From positions 1 through 6,100 of the forward strand of contig LVZN01000030.1 in the NCBI GenBank assembly GCA_001695645.1: a stretch of 6,100 nucleotides of DNA. The letters run 5' to 3'. Positions 1 to 6,100 of the stretch are shown here, piece after piece. Every line of letters starts with the position of its first letter. Within the stretch, counting starts at the first letter, position 1. Source of the stretch: Erysipelotrichaceae bacterium MTC7 (GTDB lineage: Bacteria > Bacillota_I > Bacilli_A > Erysipelotrichales > Erysipelotrichaceae). Position numbers and translations under genes: made by a program. Under the pieces are notes generated by a model. That model was not told where the DNA came from and ran no database searches. It saw only the letters and a program-made list of their open reading frames with translations.

Positions 1-20
1 AGTTTAACATATACAATTAA

Positions 21-70
21 AAAAACTGTGAAGCAGAGCCGTACGCTCTCTACTTACACAGTTTATTTTA
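21..70. terminator. Imperfect hairpin flanked by an A-run and a T-run; candidate bidirectional Rho-independent terminator
   Basis: Stem pairs 23-33 with 53-64 and 35-39 with 45-49 (AGAGC/GCTCT), loop CGTAC, with one bulge and one internal mismatch. AAAAAA precedes it and TTTATTTTA follows on the + strand, so either strand reads hairpin then U-run. It lies about 230 nt downstream of the ABC ATPase stop. It could equally terminate a + strand gene left of the window. Confidence 0.45.
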
Positions 71-295
71 CACTCCCGTATTACTCGGTTATTCGAGTAC
101 GCTCTGTTGCATTCATTATATTGCGTATAAAAGGACAATAAATATTGTGGTTTTCGACTTTTTTCTTTAAGTTTACCCACAGTCCATGATATTATCGTTT
201 TTTTTAAAAACCATATAGTAAGAGGTATTAACTTAATTTTAATCCAATTTTCTTGATTATCTCTTGTTACTTTAACTCATTTTGTGTGATTGTTA

Positions 296-925
296 TCATT
301 TGTTTTTCAAAACAATTTTTTCATCAGAAATTTTTGAAAAGACCAAGTCATGAGTGGCAATAATTATAGTCTTTCCTTCATCGCGTAGTTGCTTAAAAAT
401 ACTAATGACTACTTCTGCATTTTTTTCATCCAAATTCCCTGTTGGTTCATCAGCTAAGATAATATCACTTTCCTTGAGAAGTGCTCTAGCTAAGGCAACA
501 CGTTGTTGCTCACCTCCGGACAATGTATAAATCATTTTATCTAGGTAATTTGACAAGCCCACACGTTCTAAAACTTGATTCATCTTCTCTGTTTTGTTTT
601 TACTATTATCATATGCTAAAGCAATCTCCAAATTATACTTGACGCTCCTATTGTCAACCAAAGCATAGTTTTGAAATAAGTACGCGATTCTTTTTCTAAA
701 AAGCATAGTCTTACTACTAGTATCAACAACGCTATCTTTATAATATATAACCTCTCCAGAAGATGGTTTATCAATACCCCCTATTAAATTTAGTAATGTA
801 CTTTTTCCACTTCCAGAAACTCCATATAAAACATAGATTTTTCCTTTTTTAAATCTATAAGAAAAATCTTTTAGTACCTGATTCTCTCCAAAGGACTTAG
901 TTATATCTTTACATTCGACAACCAT
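296..925 (-). CDS. ABC transporter ATP-binding protein (MacB/LolD/FtsE-like NBD, lactococcin-972-group type)
   Basis: 209-aa ORF with Walker A GVSGSGKST, Q-loop LFQNYAL, ABC signature LSGGEQQR, Walker B IILADEPT and H-loop ATHD. It has no TM segment. Its ATG sits 2 nt after the permease stop (TAAAGATG) with an AAAGGA Shine-Dalgarno 8 nt upstream, so it is probably translationally coupled. Confidence 0.95.
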   Translation of the reverse strand: MVVECKDITKSFGENQVLKDFSYRFKKGKIYVLYGVSGSGKSTLLNLIGGIDKPSSGEVIYYKDSVVDTSSKTMLFRKRIAYLFQNYALVDNRSVKYNLEIALAYDNSKNKTEKMNQVLERVGLSNYLDKMIYTLSGGEQQRVALARALLKESDIILADEPTGNLDEKNAEVVISIFKQLRDEGKTIIIATHDLVFSKISDEKIVLKNK

Positions 926-927
926 CT

Positions 928-2931
928 TTAATTTCCTTTCAACACAATAGCAATTGATTTGCTTTCAAGTCTATATACAACTATGCTAGTAAATAAAATA
1001 TCTATAAATAAAATTATTAGCAGTATAACAAAAGTATTAATTTGATAGTTTAGAATAATTAGTAAAATGAAATTCACCACATATGAACAAATTAACAATA
1101 GAATTAAATCGACATATCTTGAGATAAAAGAGTATCCGTGCATTTTCTTTACAATATATTCTTTTCGATTCACTTCAAACATTAGAAATAAGTACTGAAT
1201 AATAAGTAAAACTAGCAACGAAATATATAGCAATATCATTGTTGCTTCATATATGAGAGTTGATAATTGTAAATTAAGTACAAAAGAACCTTCTTCTTTG
1301 GCTAGTGAATAAACAAATTCATTTTCAATTCCATACTCATACAGCATTTTTTGTGCGTTCTCATAATTTGGATCACTATTTTTCTTAAAATATAGGTCAC
1401 CCCATGTGAAGTCATCACTCACTAAGATTGGTGTTTGCTGGATATATCCCAGTTTATCCTCATCATAATTAATATTAAAGGTGAAAAGTTTTTGGTCGTC
1501 TTTAATTATAATTTCTTCAAATTCCAAAAAGTCCTTTAATCTTTCTACTCGCTTTTTGTACAACATTGGATCATTCACATATTCTTCTGGTATCAGCAAA
1601 TATTTCTTGCTTTCGTCTAGATCAACCACTTGTTGATTATTCATGTCATAAATTTTATATTTCTTCAAATAATTATAATTCACATCTACCCAAGCATAAC
1701 TTAGGTTCAAGCTATTATCATAATTACCTAAATAAATACCAATGTACTGTTCATTTTTTTGAACATCCTTAGCAAACTCGTAGATTCGCTCATTCCCCTC
1801 TTGATTTAAGAAACCCTGAATTTCTGTACTATGCGTATAGTCAGAACATTCTTCATTAAATTCATTATATTGAGTAGCAACTTTAATCGTATTTACAAAT
1901 CCAGGTAAGGAATCAAATAGTGATATTGTTAATAGAAAAACAAAAACAACTCTCATAATCGTGTTTACATTGAGGATGAACTTAGATATTCCTTTTTTCT
2001 TTAACAATATACTTATTCCAATTGATTTGATATACAGTAAAGCTATGCAATATACAATAGCAATTACAATGTATTTGCATGCAACAGCAATTATAATGTT
2101 TTGAAACATTGGAATATGAATATCGCTGAGTTTGGGTATATATATCACTGTCATAACTGCCACAACGACAACATCAAGAATGACCATCATAATTGAAGTA
2201 ACTAACAAACTATCCTTCACTATCCTAAAGTTACTATATCCATTCATTTTCTTTATCGAAATATCTTTAGTTTCATTTGAAAAAACAAGTAAAAGAATAA
2301 CGAGTGAACTACAACTTAAAATCAGCCCAAATTTGATCATTTTCTCATAATTTGGGTTTCTCTCCGTTGCAACTTCGTGATCCAAGTCTTCTTCATAGGT
2401 TTCAATGATTTCAATTTGATTTGGAAAATGATTTTGAAATTCATTGTAAAACTGTTCACGATTTTCACCAAAAACAAAATACCAACCATCTAATCGCGTA
2501 TTCAACTCATTATAAAATGAACGTTTAGTTAGTTCTATGGTATTGTCAAATGTATTAATTTCCCCAACTGTCGCTATTTGTTCATTACTGGATAAAACTG
2601 CGTATTTATCAAAGTTAAAATTCGAATCTATATTATATCTTTCTAGTAATTCCTTGTTGTTCAGTGCAATGAACTGATTAACTTTATTTTCGGTACTTCC
2701 ATTATTTGTTACAACACTAACATTATGTTTTTCTGCAAGTTTAACAATAAAGGTAGCATCATCATTTGTGTAAGTCTGTCCTTCATGCTCATAGACCATA
2801 AATTCTAAACTTGAACCTAGTCTAGTATTCACACTTTCTTCGTGAATAAATTTTTCTCTTGCGTCAGTGTGAATATAGAGAAAGCAGAATATCATAAATA
2901 TTCCGCTTAACATAAGTAAGATCTTTTTCAT
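928..2931 (-). CDS. Bacteriocin-associated integral membrane protein / ABC permease with two FtsX-like modules (DUF1430-type, putative immunity transporter subunit)
   Basis: Long uninterrupted ORF. Residue numbers use the 671-aa track ORF, which starts at TTG 2943. I prefer ATG 2931 (MKKILL...) because GGGGA lies 5 nt upstream. About 8 hydrophobic helices: aa 7-25, 202-222, 245-268, 283-305, 328-348, 563-590, 613-633 and 637-657. Two large hydrophilic domains: aa ~26-200 and ~350-560. A post-TM motif occurs twice: ETKDISIKKMNGYSNFRI at aa 224-241 and NRKEYIVKKMHGYSFISR at aa 592-609. It resembles the conserved FtsX/MacB segment after TM2. The gene sits between the peptide gene and the ATPase gene. 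Confidence 0.9.
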   Translation of the reverse strand: MKKILLMLSGIFMIFCFLYIHTDAREKFIHEESVNTRLGSSLEFMVYEHEGQTYTNDDATFIVKLAEKHNVSVVTNNGSTENKVNQFIALNNKELLERYNIDSNFNFDKYAVLSSNEQIATVGEINTFDNTIELTKRSFYNELNTRLDGWYFVFGENREQFYNEFQNHFPNQIEIIETYEEDLDHEVATERNPNYEKMIKFGLILSCSSLVILLLVFSNETKDISIKKMNGYSNFRIVKDSLLVTSIMMVILDVVVVAVMTVIYIPKLSDIHIPMFQNIIIAVACKYIVIAIVYCIALLYIKSIGISILLKKKGISKFILNVNTIMRVVFVFLLTISLFDSLPGFVNTIKVATQYNEFNEECSDYTHSTEIQGFLNQEGNERIYEFAKDVQKNEQYIGIYLGNYDNSLNLSYAWVDVNYNYLKKYKIYDMNNQQVVDLDESKKYLLIPEEYVNDPMLYKKRVERLKDFLEFEEIIIKDDQKLFTFNINYDEDKLGYIQQTPILVSDDFTWGDLYFKKNSDPNYENAQKMLYEYGIENEFVYSLAKEEGSFVLNLQLSTLIYEATMILLYISLLVLLIIQYLFLMFEVNRKEYIVKKMHGYSFISRYVDLILLLICSYVVNFILLIILNYQINTFVILLIILFIDILFTSIVVYRLESKSIAIVLKGN

Positions 2932-2947
2932 ATGTTTCCCCAATTAA

Positions 2948-3250
2948 CTACTTTCTTGTATGAACATGATTATATCGATTTGTATATAAACTTACTCTAG
3001 CTGTAGTACCAGGGCCTTTGGTTTGTGTATGTCCTGCTCCACCGGCATAATGATATATTCCTGCAGTTGCATTTGCGTATCTTTGATTATGCTCTGTTAT
3101 TGCGGTACAATTTGAACCACTTGGATTTTCATCAGCATACCGATACATCATATATGAATCTGAGTAGTATGCATTTGATGCTAGCACCACTGTTGGAATA
3201 CACATAAATGCCAATAAAACTAAAATAATACAGTATTTCAATTTCTTCAT
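2948..3250 (-). CDS. Small secreted peptide precursor; candidate Sec-dependent (class IId / lactococcin-972-like by context) bacteriocin
   Basis: ATG at 3250 is preceded by AGGAGG (3256-3261) with a 5-nt spacer. The longer track start at 3283 has no Shine-Dalgarno. The 100-aa product begins MKKLKY, then a hydrophobic core CIILVLLAFMCIPTVV, then VLA|SNA, a typical signal peptidase I site. The predicted 76-aa mature peptide is Tyr-rich (10 Y) and His-rich (5 H), has a single Cys and is net basic. It is the first gene of the operon. The permease ATG at 2931 lies 16 nt past the peptide stop codon (2948-2950). Confidence 0.8.
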   Translation of the reverse strand: MKKLKYCIILVLLAFMCIPTVVLASNAYYSDSYMMYRYADENPSGSNCTAITEHNQRYANATAGIYHYAGGAGHTQTKGPGTTARVSLYTNRYNHVHTRK

Positions 3251-3302
3251 AATTACCTCCTTTTCTAATAAGTAAAACGCCATAATAATATTCTTGATAT
3301 GT

Positions 3303-3314
3303 TAGAGTACTCTA
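3303..3314. promoter_or_regulatory. Perfect 12-bp palindrome TAGAGTACTCTA between the -10 box and the RBS; candidate operator
   Basis: Read directly: TAGAGT/ACTCTA with no mismatch. It starts 9 nt downstream of the predicted -10 hexamer, so it covers the expected transcription start region of the peptide operon. Confidence 0.3.
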
Positions 3315-3322
3315 TTATTATT

Positions 3323-3350
3323 AATATATCATAATAAGATATTTCGTCAA
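3323..3350 (-). promoter_or_regulatory. Sigma-A type promoter of the peptide-permease-ATPase operon
   Basis: On the minus strand: TTGACG (3350-3345), a 16-nt spacer, then TGATATATT, an extended -10 with TG at 3331-3330 and TATATT at 3328-3323. An A/T-rich UP-like tract lies upstream. It is about 70 nt upstream of the peptide ATG. Confidence 0.5.
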
Positions 3351-3602
3351 ATTTATATAATAATATTTTGTAATTTTTCGGTAAACCTAAAGTGAATATT
3401 TTCTCAAAAAAGTCGATTGCTATAACTTTATGATTTTCGAAATAATCTTTTGGTTCAAGTGCTCTCGAAAATATAGATGGTTTTCTCAAAACCTCGAATC
3501 ATGGATATTTACTAGATAATATTGCTCGATTATAACGAATGCAATCTGCTGCATTTTTTGTATATAGAGTTTGAAAGGATAGTAAAATAAAAGCAGCTTT
3601 TT

Positions 3603-3641
3603 CTTAATGTGTAGGTGTGGTATTACTATAACTTAATGTGT
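3603..3641 (+). repeat. Two copies of CTTAATGTGT spaced 29 bp apart, just upstream of the istB remnant
   Basis: Exact 10-mers at 3603-3612 and 3632-3641. They could be subterminal transposase-binding repeats or a rearrangement junction. A 10-mer repeat in AT-rich DNA is only weakly significant. Confidence 0.2.
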
Positions 3642-3668
3642 GTGCACCCTTTTTTTATTAGAAACTAG

Positions 3669-4334
3669 TCCACTCATCATGCCCCGGGACTTTTCTCTAC
3701 TCTATGCTTAGCATTGGAAGCATTAGAACAAATAATTGATTCTCTTTATCATTCGAGGAAGCATAAAACTATAAATCGTCTAAAAAAGAATTCAAGGAAT
3801 TCTCAAAAGAATGCTAATATATTGGATATTGATTATCTTCCTGATCGCAATATAAATAAATGCATTGTAGAACAACTACTAACGAATGATTATATACTTA
3901 AGCATCGTAATGTCAATTTTTTGTGCTTGTGGTATAGATAAAGAGTTTATAGTAAATGCATTAAGTAATCATGTTTGTGATAACTCACATTCAACATTCT
4001 ATTGTAGGATATTTGGATTCAATGATGAATGCAATCAAGAAAAAATCTAACTAACTACCACTGTTAGTGAAGCGCTCAAAAAATATGTAAAGTATTAAGG
4101 ATTAATCATTGATAATTTTTAATTAACGAGTTAATAAATAAGCAAGTGAATTATTTATTTCAACTTCATAAATAACGATATGAAACAAAGTCGACTATTA
4201 TATGCTCACAACTTGAACCCAAAGAATGGCATTCTCGAAGAGGAGATAACATATTGGCGGATTCTATTCTCAATAGAATTACTCCAAATGCATATGAAAT
4301 TATCCTTAATGGGTAATCCATGAGAAATAACTAA
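3669..4334 (+). pseudogene. istB: IS21-family helper ATPase IstB, decayed (frameshifts, in-frame stops, ruined Walker A)
   Basis: Three stretches read like IstB. The first is 3714-3938: INRLKKNS...DIDYLPDRNINKCIVEQLLTNDYILKHRNVNFL. The second is in the +1 frame at 3931-4125: GIDKEFIVNALSNHVCDNSHSTFYCRIF...KKYVKY*GLIIDNF. GIDKE sits where Walker A GxGKS/T should be, and LIIDNF sits at Walker B. The third returns to the first frame at 4149-4334: LFQLHK*RYETKSTIICSQLEPKEWHSRRGDNILADSILNRITPNAYEIILNG*SMRNN*. This matches the IstB C-terminal pattern of RYE, S-IITSN, EW, AxAILDR and GxSxR. There are at least 2 frameshifts and at least 4 in-frame stops. Confidence 0.7.
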
Positions 4335-4373
4335 AACAACAGTTATCATCATAAAGGTGGCGACTGTTGTTTT
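4333..4373. repeat. 11-bp perfect inverted repeat with a 19-nt loop immediately after the istB remnant
   Basis: AAAACAACAGT (4333-4343) and ACTGTTGTTTT (4363-4373). The right arm runs into TTTTATT, so it may be a weak terminator. The loop is long for an intrinsic terminator. Confidence 0.3.
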
Positions 4374-4624
4374 ATTACTATAATTGGCACAGTTTATCCC
4401 AACGAAAGTGGTCCACTTTTAAATTACAATAAACAGCAATTTAAGTGGCTTAAATTATAGCGACGTGGATGGCTCAAAACGAACGATGTATTCATAATGC
4501 AAATGGCTTTAGAAACTTTGAGTGAGCTCGTAATAAAATCATGTATTCACTAAATAAGCATAAGCATGATTCCCTAAGTGAGTACAAGACAAAGAAGAAA
4601 AAGAGTAAAACAAAGAAAGCAACG

Positions 4625-4656
4625 AAAAAATAGACTCCAGATTTAGCTGAAGTCTA
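4625..4656 (-). terminator. Rho-independent terminator candidate for minus-strand transcription
   Basis: TAGACTCCAG (4631-4640) and CTGAAGTCTA (4647-4656) with a 6-nt loop. The single + strand C/A mismatch becomes a G-U pair in minus-strand RNA. That gives a 10-bp stem followed by UUUUUU (complement of A-run 4625-4630). It is about 200 nt downstream of the transposase stop. Confidence 0.4.
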
Positions 4657-4722
4657 TTGACTGAACTGATGGCTTTAAACTAAGGGGCTGTGACAGATAG
4701 ACATATTTAGCCGAATCTGGAG
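4635..4722. repeat. Long-range imperfect inverted repeat (17 positions per arm) enclosing about 54 nt
   Basis: 4635-4651 pairs with 4706-4722. The core is a 9-bp perfect match, CTCCAGATT/AATCTGGAG. The extension reaches 14 Watson-Crick pairs plus 2 G-U pairs and 1 mismatch. It overlaps the arms of both neighbouring hairpins. Confidence 0.5.
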
Positions 4723-4738
4723 CACAGCTCCTTTTTTT
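4719..4738 (+). terminator. Rho-independent terminator candidate for plus-strand transcription
   Basis: GGAGC (4719-4723), loop ACA, GCTCC (4727-4731), then TTTTTTT (4732-4738). The stem is short but all five of its base pairs are Watson-Crick, four of them G-C. Confidence 0.45.
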
Positions 4739-4765
4739 CTTGATTTGTTCCATTTATTGCTCGTT

Positions 4766-4791
4766 TTTTAATAATGTGTCCATTATTAAAA
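4766..4791. repeat. AT-rich 11-bp perfect inverted repeat, TTTTAATAATG tgtc CATTATTAAAA
   Basis: Read directly. It lies about 70 nt beyond the 3' end of the transposase gene, in the zone where the IS1182-family element should end. Its function is unknown. Confidence 0.3.
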
Positions 4792-4858
4792 GCCCATTCT
4801 CATTTCAGGCTGATTTTTGATTCGCTTTTGCATTAACTCTATAATCTAATGTGGAAAA

Positions 4859-6100
4859 CTATGACAGTATAATCTTGTCTTTTGGTTTTCCATGTTTTTT
4901 ATTGTGGTATTTACGTAGATTGAAGCCAATTCCTACAAGCTTCATTTCTACCTCTACACCGCTTTCTCCTCGCCTTTGTAAACGCGTGTATTTGAAGTTC
5001 TCTTTAATATCCGCAAACGTTCCTTCCGCTTGTGAACTTCGATTACTTAGTAATTGCTTTCCACGACTGGTTTCCAGTAGTTCATCAATACGTTTCTTTT
5101 CTTTTTCCAATGCTGGTGTTACTTGTGCTGTACGCCCTTTCGTGGCTCTTGTACATCTGTTTCTTACTGGACATACCGCACAATTGGAATTGCGATAATA
5201 TATGGTAATCTTCGGTGTTAATCCAATGTATTGTACACTAGTTCTCTCTATATCAAATGCATGTCCTTGTGGACATATTGGTGTTCCGACAGCTGTTCTT
5301 TCAAAATGCACTAAGTGATATCGATTCTTATCATTTACTTTTTTCTTCTTTGCTTCAAATCCACTATATTTCAGAACCGCTTCAATACTATTTCGCTTGC
5401 AGAACTCATAATTATCATAACCACCATATCCTGCGTCTCCGACAACGGCATTAGGATAGTCATGATACTGTTTTTTAAATTCATTTAAAAATGGCTGTAA
5501 CGTTTTGATGTCATTTGGATCTGCACTTATATACATATGTGCGATGTATCCATCAACGATACCAGCTTGCACATTGTATCCAGGTTTGAAGACATTCGTG
5601 TGGTTATAATAATCGTACTTCATATGCATAAATATTGCATCTGCATCTGTCTTTGAAAAACTATTGCGATTGCCTAACACATCAGTAGCCATCGTATATT
5701 GCCACATTTTAATTGCACTTTTCTTAAGTTCATCAACTAGTTTTGCAAGTTCGTGCTTTCCACGTCTTCTACGGATAAACTTCTTTTCAGCAATATATTT
5801 TTCTATTCGTTCGTCAATCTCAATCAAATATTCTATGCTTGGTTCTTTAATAATCGAATACTTGATATTGATTTCGTTCTTTTTAAAATATGTATTGATC
5901 TGTCTAATGATTTCAATGCACTTTTTCCAGTGGCGAGGCTGATATCTTTTTTGCCATGCACGCCAAAAGAATGTCATTTTATTTGCATTAGCTTCAAACT
6001 TCGTTCCATCTATATATAGAATATTTTCTTCTAATGCTTCTTTGTCTTGTATGTATAAATATACTTGCTTAAACAACTCATCAATTGAGCACTTAAGTAT
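4859..6100 (-). CDS. IS1182-family DDE transposase, N-terminus outside the window
   Basis: The reading frame stays open to the window edge. The codons upstream of the track start read ILKCSIDE-LFKQ with no stop. Family motifs read by eye include YIDGTKFEANANK, SKTDADAIFMHMK...KPGYNVQ and GDAGYGGYDNYE. Others are the Cys cluster CAVCPVRNRC and the C-terminal NRSSQAEGTFADIKENFKYTRLQRRG...NLRKYHNK. There are no internal stops across 413 codons. Confidence 0.9.
   Translation of the reverse strand: MLKCSIDELFKQVYLYIQDKEALEENILYIDGTKFEANANKMTFFWRAWQKRYQPRHWKKCIEIIRQINTYFKKNEINIKYSIIKEPSIEYLIEIDERIEKYIAEKKFIRRRRGKHELAKLVDELKKSAIKMWQYTMATDVLGNRNSFSKTDADAIFMHMKYDYYNHTNVFKPGYNVQAGIVDGYIAHMYISADPNDIKTLQPFLNEFKKQYHDYPNAVVGDAGYGGYDNYEFCKRNSIEAVLKYSGFEAKKKKVNDKNRYHLVHFERTAVGTPICPQGHAFDIERTSVQYIGLTPKITIYYRNSNCAVCPVRNRCTRATKGRTAQVTPALEKEKKRIDELLETSRGKQLLSNRSSQAEGTFADIKENFKYTRLQRRGESGVEVEMKLVGIGFNLRKYHNKKHGKPKDKIILS
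4859..6100 (-). mobile_element. IS1182-family insertion sequence (partial in window; termini not determined)
   Basis: Inferred from the transposase gene. The near end must lie between about 4740 and 4858. I could not identify it without the other end for comparison. Confidence 0.6.

Follow-up and report, generated by a model that had tools for sequence, protein, structure and literature searches.

A rare peptide family encoded with a lactococcin 972-type transporter in a gut Erysipelotrichaceae bacterium: a candidate Sec-dependent antimicrobial operon

Why is a transporter of the type that accompanies lactococcin 972 (Lcn972) encoded next to a small, apparently secreted protein that has no detectable sequence relationship to Lcn972? 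The question is raised by an operon on a 6,100-nucleotide (nt) stretch of DNA from the gut bacterium Erysipelotrichaceae bacterium MTC7. This stretch, referred to below as the window, is the entire 6.1-kb contig (LVZN01000030.1) on which the operon lies. The genes for a peptide, a permease and an ATP-binding cassette (ABC) ATPase follow one another, in that order, on the minus strand:

3250..2948, minus strand: peptide gene, ATG at 3250, stop codon TAG at 2950-2948; 100 residues
2931..928, minus strand: permease gene, ATG at 2931, stop codon TAA at 930-928; 667 residues
925..296, minus strand: ABC ATPase gene, ATG at 925, stop codon at 298-296; 209 residues

The operon probably pairs an antimicrobial protein that is exported by Sec and represents a new sequence family with an Lcn972-type transporter for self-protection. 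The transporter and the architecture are already known; the peptide family is new.

The three open reading frames (ORFs) are those of the initial annotation, whose coordinates, lengths and gaps all proved correct, and each has a separate Shine-Dalgarno sequence, as had also been claimed. For the peptide gene this is GGAGG, 5 nt 5′ of the ATG; an alternative in-frame ATG upstream, at 3283, lacks a Shine-Dalgarno sequence, and the annotation at NCBI also gives a product of 100 residues. The permease ATG, preceded by the Shine-Dalgarno sequence GGGGA, follows 16 nt past the peptide stop, and the ATPase ATG only 2 nt past the permease stop, its AAGGA being located within the 3′ end of the permease gene. 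A C39 exporter, enzymes for ribosomally synthesised and post-translationally modified peptides and a small immunity ORF, which the annotation had reported as missing, were likewise not found in the 6.1-kb window. All three genes are real and under purifying selection, with ratios of non-synonymous to synonymous substitution (dN/dS), relative to Breznakia blatticola, of 0.11 (peptide), 0.09 (permease) and 0.10 (ATPase). Nucleotide homology between MTC7 and B. blatticola (89.5%) is confined to positions 263-3254, the three genes themselves, and has its limits 4 nt 5′ of the peptide ATG and shortly past the ATPase stop. This discrete block of homology, with a dN/dS of about 0.1 for each gene, implies that the three genes form one unit, selected and inherited together.

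Both transporter proteins match bacteriocin-linked families, in keeping with what had been proposed for them. The ATPase passes the NCBIfam model TIGR03608 (L_ocin_972_ABC), the family to which it had been assigned, with 255.5 bits (E = 3e-76), barely above the cutoff of 254.85. It shares 45% identity with the orf3 product of pBL1. Its motifs are intact: Walker A (GVSGSGKST), Q-loop, signature (LSGGEQQR), Walker B (IILADEP) and H-loop (ATHD). The ATPase is 39-51% identical to its counterparts in seven annotated Lcn972 loci (Lactococcus, Streptococcus, Staphylococcus, Enterococcus, Lactobacillus, Macrococcus and Bacillus), which among themselves are 37-62% identical, so that the MTC7 protein falls within the diversity of the family. 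The permease passes the Pfam model PF07242 (DUF1430) with 40.7 bits against a gathering score of 28.2. Its additional assignment to TIGR01654 (bact_immun_7tm) stands only in part, as residues 50-666 align with positions 30-681 of the model, from end to end (E = 1.2e-28), yet the score of 100 bits is short of the 189.35-bit cutoff. Permeases encoded beside true Lcn972 peptides score 706, 735, 242, 194, 177 and 102 bits, the last of these being that of L. amylovorus, and a score below the cutoff is thus normal for diverged members.

The eight transmembrane helices ascribed to the permease are borne out by a Kyte-Doolittle profile, which gives eight hydrophobic segments laid out as one segment, a loop of ∼175 residues, four segments, a loop of ∼210 residues and three segments, with both large loops predicted to be extracytoplasmic. 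This topology, together with a weak internal repeat (KKMNGYS versus KKMHGYS, E = 0.009), is consistent with the suggestion that the protein is a double FtsX, but the permease has no direct match to Pfam FtsX (PF02687) at E ≤ 1, and the description is for that reason kept provisional. DUF1430 and FtsX belong to one Pfam clan (PMC6588880). Sequence searches of the PDB gave no match to the permease. The gene for a multipass protein in the ∼650-740-residue range is, in any event, situated between those for a secreted peptide and a TIGR03608 ATPase.

The peptide itself begins with MKKLKYCIILVLLAFMCIPTVVLA, followed by SNAYY. By inspection this N-terminus is a predicted Sec signal, with three lysines in the first five residues (MKKLK), a hydrophobic core and the sequence V-L-A before SN. 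The predicted signal peptide comprises residues 1-24 (nt 3250-3179), leaving a mature part (nt 3178-2951) of 76 residues, 8.5 kDa and pI 9.1, with an abundance of Tyr, His, Asn and Thr and a predicted all-β structure. In the alignment of homologues the leader is variable, and the A|[ST]N junction and the mature part are conserved. Inspection and alignment together give a leader of the Sec type and a mature part within the range of ∼65-90 residues, as in Lcn972-like peptides, with neither a double glycine nor modification genes. Two other identities for the product were considered and rejected: a lipoprotein, since the leader has no lipobox and its Cys is not conserved, and a YxeA-like accessory protein, since the peptide has no match in Pfam.

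By every sequence test the peptide lies outside the Lcn972 family. It has no match in the Pfam and NCBIfam libraries, and none of the eight members of its own family matches PF09683, TIGR01653 or the mediterrocin model NF052268, even at E ≤ 10, as would be expected if, as the initial annotation guessed, this is an undescribed family. As a positive control, peptides of the Lcn972 family were drawn from seven genera, the most distant only 26% identical to Lcn972, and ten of ten match both PF09683 and TIGR01653; NF052268 was detectable in the model library, being touched by three of the control peptides. Alignment of the family with close relatives of Lcn972 using hhalign gave a probability of 0.4%. 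Against a diverse Lcn972 alignment the probability was 21% (E = 0.001, collinear) with leaders included and 1.9% for the mature domains alone. We therefore reject homology to Lcn972 as the explanation of the full-length value, the source of which is the signal peptides. Sequence searches of the PDB with the peptide profile returned nothing significant. AlphaFold2 gave models with predicted local distance difference test (pLDDT) scores of 47 for the full preprotein (four sequences), a low confidence, and 58.8 for the mature domain (eight sequences), with a predicted template modelling (pTM) score of 0.45. The latter model, although weak, is all-β with five strands, and in a Foldseek search of the PDB, which holds 2LGN and 9HKJ, its best E-value was 2.6, with neither of these entries among the matches listed.

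The family is also very small, with eight members among ∼15 billion proteins. A word-indexed search of 5.8 billion clusters yielded three homologues, and a full hidden Markov model (HMM) search of 1.8 billion representatives yielded four more, recovering no Lcn972-family protein. Collections of plasmids, phages, viral contigs and JGI metagenomes yielded no family member. The whole window had no megablast match among plasmids and phages, nor did tblastn with the permease or the peptide find a match among plasmids. A scan of the genome collection with the permease gave B. blatticola as the sole match, and scans of metagenome contigs with the permease and peptide alignments, as well as of viral contigs, gave nothing. 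Six of the eight members, that of MTC7 included, are encoded directly upstream of a DUF1430-type permease, and in four of these six the ATPase gene is visible; of the remaining two, one lies just after an ATPase gene and one is uninformative. Outside MTC7 the loci read as follows:

L001 (B. blatticola), L003 and L015: peptide gene, then the gene for a DUF1430 protein of 666-671 residues, then an ABC ATPase gene
L002: peptide gene, then the gene for a 665-residue DUF1430 protein, then a gene cut by the contig end
L012-14: peptide gene, then the gene for a permease 38% identical to that of MTC7, where the contig end cuts
L016, 2-712: peptide gene (P0010) 18 nt downstream of an L_ocin_972-type ATPase gene, in permuted order
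L017: too short for its context to be read

Wherever context can be read, then, no homologue of the peptide occurs apart from the transporter, and the flanking genes are otherwise unrelated and different in every locus. As judged by sequence, this is a new and very rare family, and each readable locus links it to the transporter. In B. blatticola the peptide gene is preceded by a 14-codon ORF, MIQKQSSQVSYKKL (L001, 4775-4819), which has a strong AAAGGAG Shine-Dalgarno sequence and whose stop codon overlaps the start codon of the peptide gene (ATGA); the Shine-Dalgarno sequence of the peptide itself is poor. The Breznakia peptide may be translated by coupling to this upstream ORF, whereas in MTC7 the peptide gene has its own GGAGG instead.

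The start of the permease gene carries a further conserved feature, flagged by a scan for terminators:

2908..2882, minus strand: hairpin (palindrome) in permease codons 8-16, AAGCGGAAUAUU-UAU-GAUAUUCUGCUU, then UCUCUAUAUU

This hairpin lies within the first 50 nt of the gene and has a folding energy of -12.1 kcal/mol (z = -4.1), the range given by the stem being -9 to -12 kcal/mol. It occurs at matching codons in six loci (MTC7, L001 at 5155-5181, L002, L003, L012 and L015), and the 27-nt block is nearly invariant among them even though they are otherwise ≤65% identical. Across the six permeases, 53 alignment columns hold an invariant amino acid with degenerate codons. The same codon is kept in 12 of these, and six of the 12 fall among the only seven such columns in the hairpin block (Fisher p = 2.5e-4). 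Among the fixed codons are TTC and TGC, the C residues of which pair with G in the 5′ arm; 98.6% of hairpin cells are paired, and all four one-sided substitutions keep the pairing. The hairpin is thus under constraint at the nucleotide level. In canonical Lcn972 loci the peptide gene is separated from the permease gene by a spacer with a stem-loop of -15 to -25 kcal/mol (six of seven loci), whereas in the peptide-family loci this spacer is only 0-17 nt and the hairpin is placed in codons 8-16. By analogy, the hairpin is probably the same device as the canonical intergenic stem-loop, a partial terminator or processing site that leaves the peptide message in excess. A role in translational control is an alternative, because in a longer fold the permease Shine-Dalgarno sequence pairs with UCUCU 3′ of the stem. 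A DNA operator is an unsupported reading of the palindrome, which occurs once in the window and has no copy near the promoter.

How closely does the operon resemble systems for which there is experimental information? The lcn972-orf2-orf3 cluster of the Lactococcus lactis plasmid pBL1 (Lcn972 structure, 2LGN) has the same gene order and encodes proteins of 91, 648 and 207 residues, compared with 100, 667 and 209 here, with a gap of 1 nt between the last two genes, compared with 2 nt in MTC7. In both cases the products are a preprotein with a Sec leader, a membrane protein of the DUF1430/TIGR01654 type and a TIGR03608 ATPase. The differences are that pBL1 has its stem-loop between the structural and transporter genes, where MTC7 has a 16-nt spacer and a hairpin inside the permease ORF; that the two permeases cannot be aligned by BLASTP, in addition to the lack of a detectable sequence relationship between the peptides; and that the MTC7 locus is chromosomal, flanked by insertion sequences (IS) and from the Erysipelotrichia, as opposed to a lactococcal plasmid. 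The lcn972 cluster with orf2-orf3 raises the minimum inhibitory concentration of Lcn972 from 12.5 to 800-1600 AU/ml, which is producer-level immunity (PMC4055356). Lcn972 binds lipid II and inhibits septum formation, according to literature cited in PMC4055356 and PMC11796350. Lcn972-like peptides in general are Sec-dependent, lipid II-binding β-sandwich proteins, and the B and C genes that follow them are presumed to serve immunity and transport, roles that have been called experimentally unverified (PMC11796350).

Three further systems bear on the comparison. Mediterrocin, from Mediterraneibacter gnavus, is an unmodified, Sec-dependent peptide of ∼89 residues from the gut Bacillota that has 18% identity to Lcn972 and, as in the MTC7 locus, DUF1430 and ABC partners, mdcH and mdcI (PMC12345188). 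Mediterrocin is recognised by the Lcn972-family models and by its own NF052268, neither of which matches the MTC7 peptide family, and its ∼80% prevalence in human gut metagenomes (PMC12345188) contrasts markedly with the eight known members of that family. Streptococcin B of Streptococcus pneumoniae is likewise the product of a three-gene Lcn972-like operon, scbABC, and its secretion is independent of dedicated bacteriocin exporters (PMC11796350). ScbA, unlike the MTC7 peptide, belongs to the Lcn972 family, and scbABC is under ComE/ComR control, whereas no regulator is conserved with the MTC7-type module. The MTC7 transporter also shares features with the BceAB/MacB-type (type VII, FtsX-clan) ABC transporters, which protect against peptides that target the cell wall: the small ATPase is a separate protein whose next-best matches are FtsE, MacB and LolD, and the predicted extracytoplasmic domains of the permease are inserted between the first and second helix of each four-helix unit. 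It differs in having 8 helices rather than 10 and no direct FtsX match, in having no linked two-component system, and in being encoded with its own secreted peptide.

With these systems as a guide, we suggest that a single transcript, starting near 3316 on the minus strand, would encode all three proteins. The 100-residue preprotein would be exported by the general Sec pathway and cut by signal peptidase after Ala24, releasing an unmodified, basic, β-rich protein of 76 residues that would act on competing Gram-positive cells. The permease and its cognate ABC ATPase would form an Lcn972-type transporter concerned with protection of the producer and not with export of the peptide, and the likely route to immunity would be removal of the peptide, powered by ATP, from the envelope component that it targets on the outside of the membrane. 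The hairpin at permease codons 8-16 would limit the message or protein of the transporter relative to the peptide.

Several observations weigh against this reading. For the peptide, no similarity to a known bacteriocin could be detected and the structure models are of low confidence (pLDDT 47 and 59); the permease falls below the TIGR01654 cutoff. The hairpin falls where the amino-acid sequence of the permease is most conserved, and it shows no double-sided covariation across the loci compared. Finally, an orphan permease-ATPase pair (locus L019, 4185-6949) has no peptide gene in the 336-nt gap upstream of it. Such a pair implies that a transporter of this kind can serve without a linked toxin. 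The L019 permease is a distant one, 23% identical to that of MTC7, and the orphan transporter may provide immunity only.

Could the peptide nevertheless be a true member of the Lcn972 superfamily, so diverged that sequence no longer reveals it, with the same β-sandwich fold and probably lipid II as its target? We regard this as possible but doubtful. The operon architecture is identical, the transporter lies within canonical Lcn972 diversity, and mediterrocin, despite its 18% identity, has the same predicted fold as Lcn972 (PMC12345188), showing how far the sequence can drift. The low-confidence AlphaFold model, with its five β-strands, and the collinear full-length hhalign alignment, which includes a weak local match (PGTTARVS with AGVWAKAT), are also what such an origin would lead one to expect. 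That hhalign signal, however, is due to the signal peptides and is lost from the mature domains; the three family models match none of the eight members, while PF09683 and TIGR01653 find all ten controls; the profile search of 1.8 billion representatives did not lead to the Lcn972 family; and the Foldseek result, obtained with a weak model, gives it no structural support.

A second explanation, which we think unlikely, is that the locus is a BceAB-like resistance or sensing module directed against foreign antimicrobial peptides, with the small protein as an accessory factor or signal. The existence of the peptide-less pair in L019 would fit a resistance module, as would the extra gene for a secreted YxeA-family protein that is found between the permease and ATPase genes in the Lcn972 loci of Staphylococcus aureus (L007, 6263-6583) and Macrococcus (L010, 2293-2607). 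The MTC7 peptide, by contrast, occupies the exact position of a bacteriocin gene, first in the operon and with the strongest Shine-Dalgarno sequence; it matches neither YxeA/DUF1093 nor any binding-protein family; and across the loci neither a regulator nor a two-component system is conserved with the module.

It is less likely again that the ABC transporter is a dedicated machine for export or maturation of the peptide, with immunity coming from elsewhere. The name given to TIGR03608 in NCBIfam, "putative bacteriocin export ABC transporter", would suggest such a role, and the tight translational linkage of the three genes would suit it. Against this, the leader is of the Sec type, with an A-x-A-like site and no double glycine, and a peptidase domain is missing from the transporter; the permease, with its 4+4 topology and large extracytoplasmic loops, fits the mechanotransmission permeases of the MacB and Bce type better than it does peptide exporters (PMC6588880); and both streptococcin B (PMC11796350) and mediterrocin (PMC12345188) have been described as Sec-dependent. 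That the locus is merely a decaying, non-functional remnant stranded among insertion sequences, as its IS-rich patch (an IS1182 transposase, an IstB-like remnant and an ISL3-associated 193-nt repeat) might suggest, is highly improbable in view of the three intact ORFs, the complete ATPase motifs, the dN/dS of ∼0.1 relative to Breznakia and the retention of the ORFs in a metagenome scaffold of 99.6% identity. We thus return, as the reading to be preferred, to an antimicrobial protein that is exported by Sec and accompanied by an Lcn972-type transporter for self-protection.

Outside the three genes, the window contains two candidate signals for transcription and the remains of mobile elements:

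3350..3323, minus strand: candidate sigma-70 promoter, matching the consensus, with -35 TTGACG, a 16-nt spacer and an extended -10 TG-n-TATATT
20..64, minus strand: hairpin resembling a terminator, with U7 after it, ∼235 nt beyond the ATPase stop; -19.5 kcal/mol, z = -4.5
4859-6076, minus strand: IS1182-family transposase (NF033551, E = 2e-61), cut by the contig end
3714-4050, plus strand: IstB/IS21 helper ATPase, a frameshifted, remnant-like pair of short overlapping ORFs

The candidate promoter, ∼73 nt upstream of the peptide ATG, agrees with the claim in the initial annotation that one promoter drives the operon in so far as it matches the sigma-70 consensus. Such sites are not enriched in this AT-rich window, however (29 found, compared with 37 expected from shuffled sequences), and the promoter is therefore plausible, not proven. 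It is specific to MTC7 and to the metagenome scaffold L018, since the homology with Breznakia ends 4 nt upstream of the ATG. Scaffold L018 is the near-identical sequence mentioned above; it is 99.6% identical to positions 78-6100 of the window and keeps all three ORFs. Positions 1-77 are not common to it, so that the link of the hairpin at 20..64 to the operon is uncertain. The IstB-like ORFs match Pfam IstB_IS21 with E = 0.0094, below the gathering score. Scans of the window for Rfam families and tRNAs gave no match.

The scaffold also allows the surroundings of the operon to be read more fully. In L018 the operon is bracketed by two direct copies of a 193-nt element (1990-2182 and 6673-6865), which are 91% identical and 4683 nt apart, the second of them adjoining a split ISL3 transposase. 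In the MTC7 window, the end of which (1-77) diverges from L018, there is a single copy, at 4494-4686. These repeats suggest an IS-mediated, cassette-like context for the operon. A full-length copy of the IS1182 transposase, of 512 residues, is encoded at 279-1817 of L018. Imperfect 30-nt inverted repeats, 80% complementary, are located at 96-125 and 8236-8265, just before murF, and enclose an 8.1-kb block made up of IS1182, the operon and ISL3; they could mark the ends of a composite element or have arisen by chance.

What, finally, would such an operon mean for the wider family? Bacteriocins of the Lcn972 type are mined by means of peptide HMMs; here the transporter pair accompanies a peptide that those models do not recognise and that is annotated at NCBI as "hypothetical". 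If the peptide proves to be active, it would represent a new sequence class of unmodified, Sec-dependent antimicrobials from the Erysipelotrichia, a lineage of animal and insect guts from which few bacteriocins have been characterised, and it would support a search strategy that begins with the transporter. Since the module is compact (3 kb), toxin, immunity and the roles of the B and C genes should be easy to test here. More tentatively, we raise the possibility that the 76-residue protein is an independent toxin that has taken the place of an Lcn972-fold peptide, that the DUF1430/ABC pair is therefore cargo-swappable, and that the hairpin is an attenuator maintained at synonymous sites in the first transmembrane helix of the permease. 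If the toxin is indeed an independent one, the DUF1430/ABC pair would become a genomic hook for toxins that no peptide model detects. The hairpin, with its constrained synonymous sites, provides an easy way into the question of how operons of this kind set the proportion of toxin to transporter.

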